This document shows positions 22,310-36,753 of a stretch of 64,000 nucleotides of DNA, in pieces (the stretch's first letter is position 1; each line of letters begins with the position of its first letter). The DNA is taken from positions 23,201 through 87,200 of the IMG/VR virus record IMGVR_UViG_3300025875_000590; one strand, given 5' to 3'. The translations under genes were made by a program, and so were the position numbers. Origin of the DNA: a virus. Its lineage: Duplodnaviria > Caudoviricetes. Under the pieces are notes generated by a model. That model was given only the letters and a program-made list of their open reading frames with translations. It did not search any database and was not told the DNA's origin.

Positions 22310-23842
22310 TCATCGCTCCACCCCGCGGTCGCGGGACGTCGTCGTGCGCGCTCGAGCACGCTCCAGATCGGCAGGCAGCACCGCCCCCGGTGCCGGGCGT
22401 GAACTGCTGGGCGCCGAAGTCACGCCAGACGGCGCGGGCGTGAACTGCGGCGTGGGGAGGGTGGCGGCGATGGTGACGAGCTCCCCGCGGGCCATCCGCG
22501 CGATCTCCTCCGCCCGCCGCGCCTCCCCCACCGCCCCGTGCCAGTCGTGCAACGCCCGCGTCGTGTTGGACAGCTGCCGCAGCAGCACCGCCTGCGCCAC
22601 CGTCCCCTGCCCCCCGTGCGCGATCGAGGCGAGCAGCAGCGCCGCCCCCCGCGCCGACGGGCCCCGCCGAGCCCCCTTCGCCTCGTGCGCCCGGATCTGC
22701 GCCGACCGGGCCAGGGAATCCGCGGCGTGCGCGAGCGGCCCCGGCACGTCGCCCTCCACGGCCACCGACCAGGCGGCGAACGCGCCGGCGGTCTCCCCCG
22801 CCACCCGAGCCCACGTCGCCCGGTCGGTGACCGGCACCGACCGCAGCCACGCCTGCAGCTGCCCGATCTCGACCGCCGCCGCCTCCCACAGCTCCGGCCC
22901 GGGGGTGACCAGCTCCGGCCCGGAGCGCACCGGTGCCCGGCCGCGTTTCGCCGCGGTCCACTCCTCGACGGCCTCCCCCACCGCCTCGACCGACCGGTCC
23001 CACCCGGCGGCCTCCCGCAGCCGAGGCAGCGTGAGGTCCTTCGCCAGGTGCCCGCCGCCGTAGAAGATGCCGTCCCCGCCCGGTGCCGGCCGGGCGACGG
23101 AGTGCCCGCCGACGACGTCGTCCCGGTCCGCGGCGAACCGGGCGTCGACGCGCAGCCCCGCCCGGCGGAGCCGGCGCACGAACTCCGCCTCGCTCGAGGC
23201 CGCCGCTGCAGCCGCCCGCACGGTGCGCGCCAGCCGCACGGTCTCCGGCTCCCGCCCGGCCGCCGCCGCCCGCTCGAGCACCGGCCGGGACACCCCGCGG
23301 TCCCCGCGGCCAGCGCCTCGGGCCTCCAGGCGCACCAGCCCGTACTTCGCCTCCAGCTCCCGGGCGAGGGCCTGAGCGCGCGGCCGGTCCCGCCACACGT
23401 TGGCCTTGGTGCCGTCCTCCCGCACGAGGGAGGTGACGAAGTGGATGTGGTCGTTGCCGCCCTTGCTCGGGCCGTGGTGCACGGCGACCCACCGGCAGGG
23501 GGCCTTCCCGTCGGCGCCGGAGAACCCCATGCCGTCGGCGATGTCCTGCGCGATCGCCGCCCACTTCTCATCCGGCAGCCGGCCCTCGTCGGCGGCCAGC
23601 GCCCAGGAGGCGTGCCACACGTGCCCGTCGGGGACGTCGACGTGGAACGCCCGCCGCGGCCCGCCGAGGTCCCGCCCGATCGCCAGCGCTTGCTCGTGGG
23701 ACAGGACGGCGGTGTCGTACCAGGCCATGATCGCCGGATCGCCGGCGACCAGGTGCGGGTCGACGTGCTGGTTGTCCCGCCCGGGCCCGACCAGGTAGGC
23801 CATGAGCCCACCGAGCCGGTTCCCGCGGGTGATGTTCGGCAT
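22310..23842 (-). CDS. Relaxase (MOBP/VirD2-like HUH family)
   Basis: MAYLVGPG (catalytic Tyr region), VWHASWAL, HHGPSKGGNDHIHFV. Confidence 0.9.
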   Translation of the reverse strand: MPNITRGNRLGGLMAYLVGPGRDNQHVDPHLVAGDPAIMAWYDTAVLSHEQALAIGRDLGGPRRAFHVDVPDGHVWHASWALAADEGRLPDEKWAAIAQDIADGMGFSGADGKAPCRWVAVHHGPSKGGNDHIHFVTSLVREDGTKANVWRDRPRAQALARELEAKYGLVRLEARGAGRGDRGVSRPVLERAAAAGREPETVRLARTVRAAAAAASSEAEFVRRLRRAGLRVDARFAADRDDVVGGHSVARPAPGGDGIFYGGGHLAKDLTLPRLREAAGWDRSVEAVGEAVEEWTAAKRGRAPVRSGPELVTPGPELWEAAAVEIGQLQAWLRSVPVTDRATWARVAGETAGAFAAWSVAVEGDVPGPLAHAADSLARSAQIRAHEAKGARRGPSARGAALLLASIAHGGQGTVAQAVLLRQLSNTTRALHDWHGAVGEARRAEEIARMARGELVTIAATLPTPQFTPAPSGVTSAPSSSRPAPGAVLPADLERARARTTTSRDRGVER

Positions 23843-31874: not shown

Positions 31875-32978
31875 TCAGGCGGCGATGGCCGCGGCGAGCC
31901 CGAGGTGCTCGAGGACCTCGTCGGGGGCGGCGTCGAGCAGCAGCCCGAGGACGGCGGCGGTGGCGTGCAGCGGGACGACGCCGTTGCCGAGCATCTTGAT
32001 CGCGTCCTCCCCGGATACGGCCCACCGATCGGCGGGGGCGTCGAACAGGTCGAGCTGGTCGACCACTGCCGGCACGCGGGTGACCCACCCGGCGGGCAGG
32101 CCCATCATCCACTCGGTGAAGGCGGGGTTCAGTCCTCGTCCGCCGCGGGCTCGTCGCTCCAGAGGCTGAGGGGCTCGTCGGCCGGTGATGTGCTCCCAGC
32201 GGGCGACGGCGTCGGCGTAGACGCCCCAGTCGACGTCAGCGCCCCCAGCAGGGTCGGGTTGCCCCGCGGGTAGGACAGCGAGGTCCGCTCGGCGTCCGAG
32301 CGCATCGGGGTAGGCAGCAGGTGCAGCGCCGTCGTCAGGTCGTGGCCGCCGGAGCCGGGCCGGGTCATCCGCGCGTAGTCCGGGCCGGAGTGGGCCAGCT
32401 TCGCCTCCGGGGTCGGCAGGAGCCGGCCAGGCGGTGATGAACACGCGGGCGCGGCCGTGGGGGGCGCCGACGGCGGAAGCGGGTACGAGACGCCACGCCG
32501 CATCGTACCCGAGGTCGGCCAGGTCGCCGAGAACAGCTCCGAGGGCCCGGAGGACGACGGAATCCGCCAGGTCCGGCTCGTCGGGTCCCAGATCGCGGTG
32601 GGCTCGGGCACTGAGCAGTCCTCTCACGTTCTCGATGACGACCAGCGCGGGGCGCAGCTGGGCGATGGCGTAGGCGAAGTGGGTCCAGAGACCGGAGCGG
32701 GAGTCGGGGTGGATGCCGAGCCGGCGCCCGGCGAGGGACACGTCCTGGCAGGGGAAGCCGCCGAGCAGGACGTCGACGGGCTCGACCTCGGACCAGTCGA
32801 TGCGGGCGACGTCGCCGAGGTTGGGGACGTCGGGGAAGCGGTGGGCGAGGACGCGGCAGGCGGCGGGCTCGACCTCGGCGTGCCAGGCGGTGCGGGCGCC
32901 GGGGATGGCCGCGGTGACGCCGAGGTCCAGGCCGCCGTAGCCGGAGAACAGCGACCCGACGGTGAGGGCAGGGGCCAC
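31875..32978 (-). CDS. C5 cytosine DNA methyltransferase
   Basis: Motifs I FSGYGG, IV GFPCQD, VI ENV, VIII RARVF, X LGNGVVP. Confidence 0.95.
   Translation of the reverse strand: MAPALTVGSLFSGYGGLDLGVTAAIPGARTAWHAEVEPAACRVLAHRFPDVPNLGDVARIDWSEVEPVDVLLGGFPCQDVSLAGRRLGIHPDSRSGLWTHFAYAIAQLRPALVVIENVRGLLSARAHRDLGPDEPDLADSVVLRALGAVLGDLADLGYDAAWRLVPASAVGAPHGRARVFITAWPAPADPGGEAGPLRPGLRADDPARLRRPRPDDGAAPAAYPDALGRRADLAVLPAGQPDPAGGADVDWGVYADAVARWEHITGRRAPQPLERRARGGRGLNPAFTEWMMGLPAGWVTRVPAVVDQLDLFDAPADRWAVSGEDAIKMLGNGVVPLHATAAVLGLLLDAAPDEVLEHLGLAAAIAA
32129..32611 (-). CDS. Nested out-of-frame ORF (LLPTP repeats) inside the methyltransferase gene
   Basis: 160 aa in +1 frame; GC3 higher than host frame; TWPTSG and two LLPTP motifs. 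Confidence 0.6.
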   Translation of the reverse strand: MPEPTAIWDPTSRTWRIPSSSGPSELFSATWPTSGTMRRGVSYPLPPSAPPTAAPACSSPPGRLLPTPEAKLAHSGPDYARMTRPGSGGHDLTTALHLLPTPMRSDAERTSLSYPRGNPTLLGALTSTGASTPTPSPAGSTSPADEPLSLWSDEPAADED

Positions 32979-34461: not shown

Positions 34462-35126
34462 TCAGGCGGCCTCGGCGGGTGCGTCGGTGAACGACACGGC
34501 GACGGCCTGCCCGCCGGCGGGGTCCTCCCGCAGCGGGGTGACGCCGGTGTGCTCCTGCCAGCGGCGGCAGATGACGTCGGCGTACCGCAGGTCGAGCTCC
34601 ACGAGCGCGGCCAGCCGGCCGGCGCGGTGCGCGGCGATCAGCGTCGACCCGGACCCGCCGAACAGGTCGAGGACGAGCGCGCCCTTCTTCGTGGAGTTTT
34701 CGATGGCACGCCCAACTAATTGGGTGGGCTTCATCGTGGGGTGTACGTCGTTGCGGGAGGGCCGGGGGATCGACCAGACGGTGGTCTGCTTCCGGCCGCC
34801 GTGCCAGGTGTGGGCGGCGCCCTCCCGCCAGCCGTAGAGGATCGTGTCGTGCTCGAGGTCGAAGTGCGGGGGCTCGGGCGGGGTGGAGCCGGGGCGCCGG
34901 TCCAGCCCTCCTCCTTCGCCGCGCGCCAGGTGGTGTTCCCGGCGAGCACGAAGCCCGTCGACCGCTGGACCACGATCGTGCGGTATTGGCCGTGGATGCG
35001 GAGCGACTCCCGGATGACCTCGACGCTCCCCTTGTTCGGGTTGCGCGGGTGCGGCCTGATCGAGTCGATGGGGACGACGACGCTGGCAGCGGCGATCTGC
35101 TCGGCGGTCAGGCTGGGCTGGGACAC
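34462..35126 (-). pseudogene. ParB-N/N6-N4 DNA methyltransferase fusion with internal deletion and frameshift
   Basis: ParB-N (HPRNPNKG, VLAGNT) joined out of frame to MTase C-half (HPTMKP, DLFGGSGSTL); DPPY motif absent. Confidence 0.75.
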
Positions 35127-35182
35127 GGGGCGGGGCTCCTGGGCATGCGGGAGGAAGCCCGGCCCAGAGCCAGCAGCAGCAC

Positions 35183-35812
35183 CTAGTCTGCCGCGCTCGC
35201 GACGCGGTGCGGCGGAGGTTGGGAACCGGTCGCGCTCGGCGCGGCGAGGTAGCGGATGGCGGCGGCCAGCCGGGCAGGGTCGTTGCGGAAGGCGCCGAGG
35301 CCGAGGTTGCACGCGCCGCAGAGCAGCCCCCGGACGTGGCCCTCGCGGTGGCAGTGGTCGATGACCAGCCCCTCGGCGACGACGTCGCCGCAGATCCGGC
35401 AGGCCCCGCCCTGCTCTTCTTCGAGGGCGGCCAGCTCGGCCTCGGTGAGCCCGTAGGTGTAGAGCTTCCGCCGGCGGGCGTTGCGCTTCGCGTAGGCGGA
35501 GTTGACCTCGCGCATCCGCTCCCGGTGCCCGGCCTGCCAGGCGACGGAGCTGGCCTTCAAGCACGCCTTGCAGCGCGACATCGGCTTGCGCTCGGGATTC
35601 GACCCGGGGCGCCCGGAACGCAGGTAGAACTCCTCGGGGCCCTTGGCCTCCCCGCATCCGGTGCACCGGTGGCCGGTCGTCGGGACCTCGCGGAGACTGC
35701 GGGCACCGCCGGGATCACCGTGCGTCTTCCACCGCTGCCAGTGCATGGAGCACCAGCCCCGCCCCACCACGGGCCTGTCGCAGCCGTCGATGCTGCACGT
35801 AGCCTTGCTCAC
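35183..35812 (-). CDS. Endonuclease VII-type (His-Me finger) endonuclease
   Basis: YGLT..QGGACRIC, IDHCH..VRGLLCGACNLGLG; N-terminal CSIDGC..WCSMHWQRW. Confidence 0.9.
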   Translation of the reverse strand: MSKATCSIDGCDRPVVGRGWCSMHWQRWKTHGDPGGARSLREVPTTGHRCTGCGEAKGPEEFYLRSGRPGSNPERKPMSRCKACLKASSVAWQAGHRERMREVNSAYAKRNARRRKLYTYGLTEAELAALEEEQGGACRICGDVVAEGLVIDHCHREGHVRGLLCGACNLGLGAFRNDPARLAAAIRYLAAPSATGSQPPPHRVASAAD

Positions 35813-35935
35813 GTCGACTCCATCCGGTCGGCCATGCCCCGGGCCAGTGACAGCTGGCGCCGGGGTCCCCTCCGAGGACGGTAGCTCCGCCCACCGACGA
35901 CCCCCGGTGAGCACCTCGAGTCCGCTCGGATCCGT

Positions 35936-36199
35936 TCAGTCGGCGGGGAACAGGTGGATGACGCGGGCGGCGAGGCGGGGGTGGCCGACGGCGGTGAGCT
36001 GGTCCACGATGCCGCCGACGAGGATGGGCCAGGCGGCGGTGACGGCGATGGCGGCCTGGCAGGATGCGCAGCTGCCGCAGCAGTCGGCGGGCAGCCCGGT
36101 CGGGGCGGGACCCTCCTCGAGCAGGTGCCCGTCGAGGGCGGTGAGGGCGGCTTCGACGGCGGCCACCGCAGCGTGCCCGGAGGCGGTGAGGGCGCTCAC
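35936..36199 (-). CDS. Hypothetical protein with CCGSCASC motif
   Basis: 87 aa, overlap-coupled. Confidence 0.6.
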   Translation of the reverse strand: MSALTASGHAAVAAVEAALTALDGHLLEEGPAPTGLPADCCGSCASCQAAIAVTAAWPILVGGIVDQLTAVGHPRLAARVIHLFPAD

Positions 36200-36750
36200 G
36201 CGAGCAGCCCGCGGACGGCGAGGGGGAGCAGCAGCACGAGCGGGGTGAGGACGACGGCGGTGACGGTGAGCACGAGCGGGGTCTCCCGCCAGGACCACCA
36301 GCCGCGTCGGCGCCATGGGGAGGCGAGGGCGCCCCAGCGGACGGCGACCCACAGCAGCAGGGTGAGGACGGGGCCGACGCCGACGGAGCGGAGTGCGCGG
36401 CGCCACAGCTGGTCGACGCCGGGGGAGTCCAGCCAGGGCTGCCGCACCTCGAGCAGCGGCTGGTCCCGCTCGGCGCGGAGCCGGTTGGCGCGCTCGCCGG
36501 CCCACTGGTCGCGGAGGGCGTCGCAGCCGAGGTCGTGGGTGGCGGCGGGCTCGTCCCACGGGCCGAGCTTGGGCACGAAGATCGTGAGCAGGCGGGGGAT
36601 GGTGGCGAAGTCGGTGCGGTAGCCGGCGGGGGTGGTGAACACGCGGTCGGGCACCGGGCCGGTGGCGTCGAGGAACGGGAGGTCCTCGAGCAGCTGCCAC
36701 GGGCGGGGCCCGCCGATGCGGCGGACGGCGATCTGGGACAGGTAGGGCAC
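36196..36750 (-). CDS. DUF1353 family protein
   Basis: PAGYRTDFATIPR, AATHDL; C-terminal TM. Confidence 0.8.
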   Translation of the reverse strand: MPYLSQIAVRRIGGPRPWQLLEDLPFLDATGPVPDRVFTTPAGYRTDFATIPRLLTIFVPKLGPWDEPAATHDLGCDALRDQWAGERANRLRAERDQPLLEVRQPWLDSPGVDQLWRRALRSVGVGPVLTLLLWVAVRWGALASPWRRRGWWSWRETPLVLTVTAVVLTPLVLLLPLAVRGLLA

Positions 36751-36753
36751 GGG

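Follow-up and report, generated by a model that had tools for sequence, protein, structure and literature searches.

The window analyzed here, a 64,000-nucleotide (nt) stretch of DNA (75% G+C, GC) belonging to the 87.2-kb virus record IMGVR_UViG_3300025875_000590 (positions 23,201 to 87,200), carries on its minus strand two overlapping open reading frames (ORFs) that probably encode the two subunits of a phage C5 cytosine DNA methyltransferase, one gene lying wholly inside the other. The outer frame, ORF A (alpha; 31875..32978, 367 amino acids, aa), and the nested same-strand frame, ORF B (beta; 32129..32611, 160 aa, with a GTG start, in the +1 frame of A), were found at exactly the positions given in a preliminary description of the locus; all window coordinates below refer to the minus strand. 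That description had also attributed motifs I-VIII and IX-X to the open methyltransferase frame, and this was borne out. The Pfam family PF00145 covers ORF A only at aa 6-183 (expect value, E, 1.4e-32), within the part holding motifs I-VIII (aa 1-186), and the catalytic motifs FSGYGG (I), FPCQD (IV), ENV (VI) and GAPHGRARVF (VIII) are found in a single chain. Further downstream in the same frame, the C-terminal part (aa 248-367, 31878..32237) contains a WGxYxxAVxRWE element, the conserved WGVYADAVARWE element, motif IX (LNPAFTEWMMGLPAGW) and motif X (GNGVVP), which are the C-terminal motifs of a C5-methyltransferase. The families phrog_116 and phrog_363 match ORF A across aa 4-345, and M.HhaI was both its top sequence match and its top fold match (fold E 2e-13). 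In the AlphaFold2 (AF2) model of ORF A (predicted template modelling score, pTM, 0.80), the C-terminal part packs against the core, both with a predicted local distance difference test (pLDDT) score above 90.

Between motifs VIII and IX, no folded target-recognition domain was found in the ORF A chain. The 61 residues that occupy this position (aa 187-247, 32238..32420) form a spacer rich in R, P, G, A and D, corresponding to the out-of-frame reading of two modules encoded by ORF B. Its reading in frame A is unconserved among related loci, the proportion of G or C at third codon positions (GC3) is 0.60, and aa 199-238 are predicted to be disordered (pLDDT < 50), in agreement with the preliminary description of this part of the methyltransferase frame as filler. 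Inspection of the sequence revealed no ATG, GTG or TTG in frame A from motif VIII to motif IX, and the C-terminal part could therefore be obtained only by read-through from the core.

As the window has a GC content of 75% and contains, in its six frames, 278 stretches of 150 or more codons free of stops, an open nested frame is uninformative by itself. The possibility that ORF B is a chance ORF was rejected without using its openness as evidence, on the basis of a family match, homologues, a switch in GC3 and a substitution pattern, all of which exceed chance. ORF B matches positions 71-212 of the profile of the phage family phrog_1008 (E 4e-15), and positions 226-319 of the same profile match frame A instead (E 2e-29). 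The profile, which includes an N-terminal domain (N-domain), modules, the WGxY element and motifs IX-X, is thus split over two frames in the window, with no single protein spanning all of its parts. This family corresponds to the second gene (the C-terminal half) of relatives with two genes, such as gp44 of phage Andrew. Matches to ORF B (tblastn) were obtained in 192 actinophage records, where they extend over a pair of neighboring, overlapping genes that each bear the annotation DNA methyltransferase, and homologues of B among metagenome proteins comprised 1261 cluster representatives (E <= 1e-3). The Pfam search returned no family for ORF B, nor for the B proteins of three relatives. Along the locus, GC3 in frame A was 0.97 upstream of B, 0.80 where B overlaps motifs VI-VIII (0.87 in frame B), 0.60 across the modules (0.98 in frame B) and 0.96 past the stop of B. 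In the stretch sampled in the preliminary description (32341-32400), the reported 20 of 20 G/C third positions in the nested frame were confirmed, and the count for the methyltransferase frame was corrected from 13 of 19 to 13 of 20.

Related loci were gathered from 24 related viral contigs, several GenBank phages and two metagenome contigs, and each conserved piece was mapped to its frame. The closest relative, L038, was assembled independently and is collinear with the window over 658 nt without gaps, with an identical frame layout at both junctions. Over module 1, differences between the two sequences amounted to 0.13, 0.03 and 0.21 at the first, second and third codon positions of B, respectively, a pattern indicating that selection acts there on B and not on A. 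A further candidate explanation of the two frames, an assembly or sequencing error or a pair of compensating frameshifts (an indel was suspected at a run of five G near 32246-32250), was rejected on account of this gapless collinearity, the identity of the frames and the recurrence of the layout in many loci. ORF B is a selected coding frame across the variable region of the methyltransferase gene.

The central part of ORF B is composed of two modules, with the ordered LLPTP repeats noted in the preliminary description located at residues 64-68 and 98-102. Module 1 (LLPTPEAKLAHSGPDYARMTRPGSGGHDLTTALH; aa 64-97, 32321..32422) is of the GPDYAR type and shares 58-65% identity with modules of phages Andrew and Lymara and of locus L012; module 2 (LLPTPMRSDAERTSLSYPRGNPTLLGAL; aa 98-125, 32237..32320) belongs to another recurring type, RGNPTL. 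These types were found in 107 and 55, respectively, of 201 B-type proteins, in which module types recur and the number of modules ranges from one to eight or more (two in the window, five in L038). In related single-frame or two-gene enzymes, LLPTP modules sit between motif VIII and motif IX, in accordance with the earlier proposal that the nested frame covers the variable target-recognition region. The tail of B (aa 126-160, 32132..32236) begins as a shadow of the WGVYADAVARWE element of A and ends in 16 acidic residues, DEPLSLWSDEPAADED (32132-32180), whose third positions are G or C in 16 of 16 cases and over which frame A contains CGA, GGA and CCT, which are rare codons. Acidic tails of a similar kind are conserved in L038 and L012, and this end may be selected in its own right. 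The TGA stop of B (32129-32131) falls within the codons for G-L-N in frame A.

The GTG start of B (32609-32611) is formed from a rare Ser codon (AGT) of frame A, and a Shine-Dalgarno-like sequence, GAGAGGA (32619..32625), is situated 7 nt upstream of it. This site is itself composed of the rare Arg-Gly codons AGA GGA within motif VI (ENVRG). Based on codon shares in the window phage (AGA, 0.4% of Arg; GGA, 2.9% of Gly; AGT, 1.3% of Ser), the joint chance of the three codons is approximately 1.6e-6. The same arrangement, a GTG seven codons past ENV with GAGAGG-like purines and a +1 stop before it, was observed in the window and in 11 relatives; other relatives use AAT in ENV, giving an ATG at that place. 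The start signals of B are conserved.

From its start to the first module, ORF B overprints ORF A from the end of motif VI up to and including motif VIII (32422..32611), a doubly constrained stretch in which B encodes an N-domain (aa 1-63; roughly 60 residues) with the pattern W8, W15 and FSATWPTSG..G..Y.LP. Over motifs VI-VIII, the +1 frame was stop-free in 21 of 22 loci, against a total of approximately 17.5 expected stops; stop depletion was weak in each locus taken separately (P 0.05-0.87), and only the sum, over loci that are not fully independent, is informative. Identity in the +1 frame across the overlap in these 22 loci was 0.41, compared with 0.27 after permutation of synonymous codons, while the upstream control gave 0.29 versus 0.26. 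Moreover, in short, low-GC loci without the insertion between motifs VI and VII, the start of the domain (W/F-D-x5-W) is placed upstream of ENV in a different register relative to A, so the conservation of the N-domain is not tied to the register of A. In the AF2 model of B, aa 1-50 reached pLDDT values of 87-94. In P0175 (L040:1001-2215), a single-chain relative, the N-domain follows motif VIII in the same frame, free of any methyltransferase shadow beneath it. Taken together, the comparison and the model indicate that the N-domain of B is a real domain. The +1 frame over motifs VI-VIII of P0175 was seen to retain only a degraded shadow, and the overlap may have been resolved by duplication in this relative. 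A Cys pair, E.C..C[MLV]G, was also noticed in frame A of the VI-VII insertion in L001, L008-L010, L013-L015, L017, L021 and L024; it is absent in the window, L011 and L012.

Nested and related layouts recur in many diverged phage loci, with GC contents ranging from 42 to 76%. In a two-gene layout, detected in phages Andrew, Lymara, Lilbooboo and Goose and in L019, L021, L023 and L024, the core is encoded in frame 0 and the rest in the +1 frame: the first gene stops after motif VIII and the second comprises the N-domain, LLPTP repeats, WGxY and motifs IX-X, with an overlap of 239 nt between gp43 and gp44 of Arthrobacter phage Andrew. In the nested layout (L008, L009, L011-L014, L018 with 42% GC, L022, L031 with 55% GC, L038 and phage Darolandstone), frame 0 is open throughout and holds motifs I-VIII and IX-X, the modules being present only in the +1 ORF. 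Phage Shauna1, L015 and L020 return to frame A after the first module, and Paenibacillus phage Leyra and L039 do so past motif IX; across loci the offsets agree, being +1 and then -1. In 86 of the 120 best full-length homologues of A, motif VIII and WGxY are separated by a spacer of 56-170 residues that lacks an in-frame PTP module and often holds 'DGRHEGRPEPARL.GGPDAA', the out-of-frame shadow of the module 'TDGTKGGPNQRGSSGDLMLP'. Conversely, motif IX is missing in frame from 96 of 103 homologues of B. Both nested genes are annotated in Leyra (gp61/62); the GenBank records of Shauna1 (gp67, L032) and Darolandstone (gp38, L033) have one long DNA methylase gene, its inner +1 ORF with N-domain and modules being unannotated.

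Some peculiarities of single loci were recorded as well. An in-frame stop lies between two LLPTP modules of the nested ORF in L009 (position 2189), which could reflect breakage of the beta gene, a further split or an error of assembly. The +1 ORF of L031 (1796-2938) contains an insert of approximately 190 residues with a motif resembling LAGLIDADG by eye (..AAGLFEGEGYF..), for which the Pfam search gave no match; frame 0 is nevertheless open over all 284 codons. In L039 (2001-3002; 58% GC) the two frames are co-extensive, the ATG of B lying within the first codons of A, and gene calling retained B but not the catalytic gene; in this B protein, FLPELVG and EDSPAKTS correspond to motifs I and IV read as +1 shadows.

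To assess the openness of the outer frame, synonymous codons of B were permuted and the stops arising in frame A were counted. No frame A stop was present in the nine nested-type loci analyzed, compared with a total of approximately 16.8 expected, although combined probabilities are rough since the loci in these sums are kin. The depletion was clear in L031 (0 stops versus 9.1 expected) and in Leyra (0 versus 5.9; P < 2e-4 each). In contrast, stops in frame A of two-gene loci occurred at the expected rate (observed/expected: 3/5.0, 10/8.8, 3/4.3, 1/1.4, 9/7.2 and 2/4.8). The outer frame is held open beyond chance in low-GC relatives, and both frames are under selection.

These results point, with good probability, to a two-subunit C5 cytosine DNA methyltransferase made from two same-strand genes. 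Alpha would provide the S-adenosylmethionine (AdoMet)-binding and catalytic core (motifs I-VIII) together with motifs IX and X, tied to each other by a flexible spacer whose sequence would be irrelevant, being merely the inner gene read out of frame. Beta would initiate at its own GTG shortly past motif VI, behind the embedded ribosome-binding site, and would consist of a small beta-rich N-domain, presumably the docking part, two LLPTP-type recognition modules (GPDYAR, then RGNPTL) and the acidic tail. Upon assembly of alpha and beta, the modules of beta would stand in for the target-recognition domain at its position between motifs VIII and IX. We infer from these comparisons that both proteins are made and bind each other, and that beta sets the sequence specificity. 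The supply of specificity in trans, as suggested in the preliminary description, is likewise favored by the selected nested frame, its modules, its own start and the open outer frame in low-GC relatives.

The same arrangement of pieces might be read by a single ribosome shifting frame twice, by +1 past motif VIII and by -1 ahead of WGxY, which would yield one full-length enzyme with covalently inserted modules and leave a separate B irrelevant. The order of core, modules and motifs IX-X, identical to that of the single-chain relatives L016 and P0175, and the constancy of the offsets over loci would be explained in this way. However, a by-eye check across loci and at the return point of the window detected no conserved slippery site at the frame junctions: the stretch from motif VIII to the first LLPTP is variable in length and sequence, and no X XXY YYZ heptamer is present at the return point of the window. 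Moreover, the portion of B upstream of any shift site (N-domain, start codon and Shine-Dalgarno-like sequence) is conserved and predicted to fold, the return point varies among relatives, and two successive shifts would yield very little product. Such a mechanism is thus highly improbable, and the production of alternative enzymes by frameshifting, which the preliminary description had offered as an option, was not supported.

Another reading concerns the role of the inner protein: B could be a real protein that is independent of A or regulates it, for instance as an inhibitor or as a DNA mimic through its acidic tail, rather than a recognition subunit. The apparent selection on that tail, the lack of a fold match for B and the compact fold predicted for A alone are in line with this possibility. 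On the other hand, two-gene and single-chain relatives carry the same N-domain and modules in one continuous polypeptide with motifs IX-X or with the whole enzyme, and A has only a disordered spacer at the expected site of the target-recognition domain; on balance, an independent or regulatory function of B seems unlikely.

Several observations weigh against the two-subunit reading or reduce the evidence for it. When B was modeled alone with AF2, its modules were predicted with low confidence (pLDDT 54-75), and the fold search with the B model gave no match (Foldseek E >= 4; VIA-align Z <= 2.5), a result which does not show a new fold. The second half of the N-domain pattern (WPTSG..G..LP) is largely forced by the conserved LADLGYDxxW..GAPH of A, and the L039 shadows FLPELVG and EDSPAKTS appear conserved without functional need. 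In the comparison of the window with L038, differences in the overlap mainly follow A as the coding frame (0.14, 0.17 and 0.27 by A codon position), so that the constraint on B there is moderate. Lastly, the openness of frame A across the spacer of the window itself was not significant (P 0.62); the permutation is powerless here because the third positions of B are nearly all G or C, and the case for the window leans on its relatives.

This last result would also be expected if the locus were a decaying or inactive remnant of a two-gene ancestor that suffered a frameshift, frame A being open by chance at a GC3 of 0.97. The reduction to two modules, as against five in L038, and the truncated appearance of the adjacent N6/N4 DNA methyltransferase would fit such decay. 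Yet the same junction frames are found in the independently assembled L038 and in L012, no stops have accumulated, the C-terminal part of A is conserved with a GC3 of 0.96, the rare-codon start signals and every catalytic motif are intact, and low-GC relatives maintain the layout under selection, all of which make a remnant very unlikely.

The layout in the window is most likely a variant of the nested two-subunit arrangement that has been shown experimentally only for M.EcoHK31I, a precedent which the preliminary description had cited accurately: beta is encoded there entirely within another frame of alpha (PMC2836561). M.EcoHK31I (E. coli HK31, YGGCCR) is described as a heterodimeric C5-methyltransferase in which both polypeptides are needed (Lee, Kam & Shaw 1995, as summarized in PMC2836561 and PMC3404938). 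As in the window, and according to the same summaries, its beta is nested in the alpha gene, in another frame, past motif VIII and ahead of the C-terminal motifs; unlike in the window, its alpha is reported to keep the target-recognition domain and motif X, and its 61-aa beta to carry only motif IX. In the window, alpha has both IX and X, and the 160-aa beta has the recognition modules together with an N-domain overprinted on motifs VI-VIII. The relatives Leyra and L039, which place motif IX in beta, are closer in layout to M.EcoHK31I as described. The other two-subunit C5-methyltransferase, M.AquI (CYCGRG; Karreman & de Waard 1990, as summarized in PMC3404938), is described as split in the variable region, with an N-terminal subunit carrying motifs I-VIII. 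The same layout was observed in the two-gene relatives Andrew gp43/44 and Goose gp80/79, whose C-terminal half carries motifs IX-X. The window differs from M.AquI in that its C-terminal motifs return to the first frame, its second gene is nested rather than trailing, and the overlap, of at least 190 nt, is conserved in both frames. As of 2012, only M.AquI and M.EcoHK31I had been described as two-polypeptide C5-methyltransferases (PMC3404938), and fragments of naturally monomeric C5 enzymes can complement each other (PMC2836561, PMC3404938).

Among phages, the pairs of Arthrobacter phage Andrew (gp43/44), Mycobacterium phage Goose (gp80/79) and Paenibacillus phage Leyra (gp61/62) share with the window the same families (phrog_1008, phrog_116/363), the +1 offset, the N-domain and the LLPTP/WxTP modules, and their GenBank records are limited to annotation as DNA methylase. 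The multispecific C5-methyltransferases of Bacillus phages SPR, phi3T and rho11s are single polypeptides with tandem exchangeable recognition modules between motifs VIII and IX. They resemble the family of the window, in which the number of modules also varies, in their modular arrangement, and differ from it in being single-chain. An HNH endonuclease encoded out of frame, the ShiLan domain, has been reported inside an actinophage methylase (PMC11855218); like ORF B, it is a hidden GTG-start ORF lying in a phage methylase gene that remains open in its own frame, but it is a selfish homing element and has nothing to do with methylase function, whereas the inner ORF of the window would encode part of the enzyme. 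Within the collection of literature that was searched, no paper describing the arrangement of this phage family was found, only the M.EcoHK31I and M.AquI papers, gene lists of P. larvae phages and the unrelated ShiLan case.

Regarding the neighborhood of the locus, an adjacent N6/N4 DNA methyltransferase (34462-35714) appears broken or truncated: only positions 135-219 of the 221 of the PF01555 profile were matched, in another frame than a weak ParB_N match (E 0.002), and the N-terminal catalytic part was not found with Pfam in this interval. Nearby genes of the same strand and block (35183-35935 and 36196-36753) matched Endonuclease VII (PF02945, E 4e-22) and DUF1353 (E 2e-12), respectively.

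A broader scenario, possible but doubtful when all of its parts are taken jointly, can be sketched for the family. The N-domain of beta would have arisen de novo by overprinting of motifs VI-VIII and would now dock a modular recognition subunit; -1 indels farther downstream would move C-terminal pieces from beta to alpha, which would account for the different points of return to frame A (past a single module, past the full set of modules, past motif IX, or no return at all); and P0175 would have resolved the overlap by duplication. With the recognition modules on a separate protein, specificity could become exchangeable or combinable between co-resident phages. If so, single mutations would shuffle pieces between the two subunits in this family.

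Should the two-subunit interpretation be true, nested or overlapping two-subunit C5 enzymes would be common in phages, their carriers including hundreds of cultured actinophage and Paenibacillus phage genomes and thousands of metagenome proteins. Many database entries named DNA cytosine methyltransferase would then include a meaningless out-of-frame spacer, with the inner gene left unannotated. The long same-strand overlaps (160 codons in the window and up to approximately 380 in relatives), which come with internal controls, would be useful for studying the origin and maintenance of overlapping genes, and the natural split scaffold with exchangeable recognition modules could be used to engineer methylation specificity.

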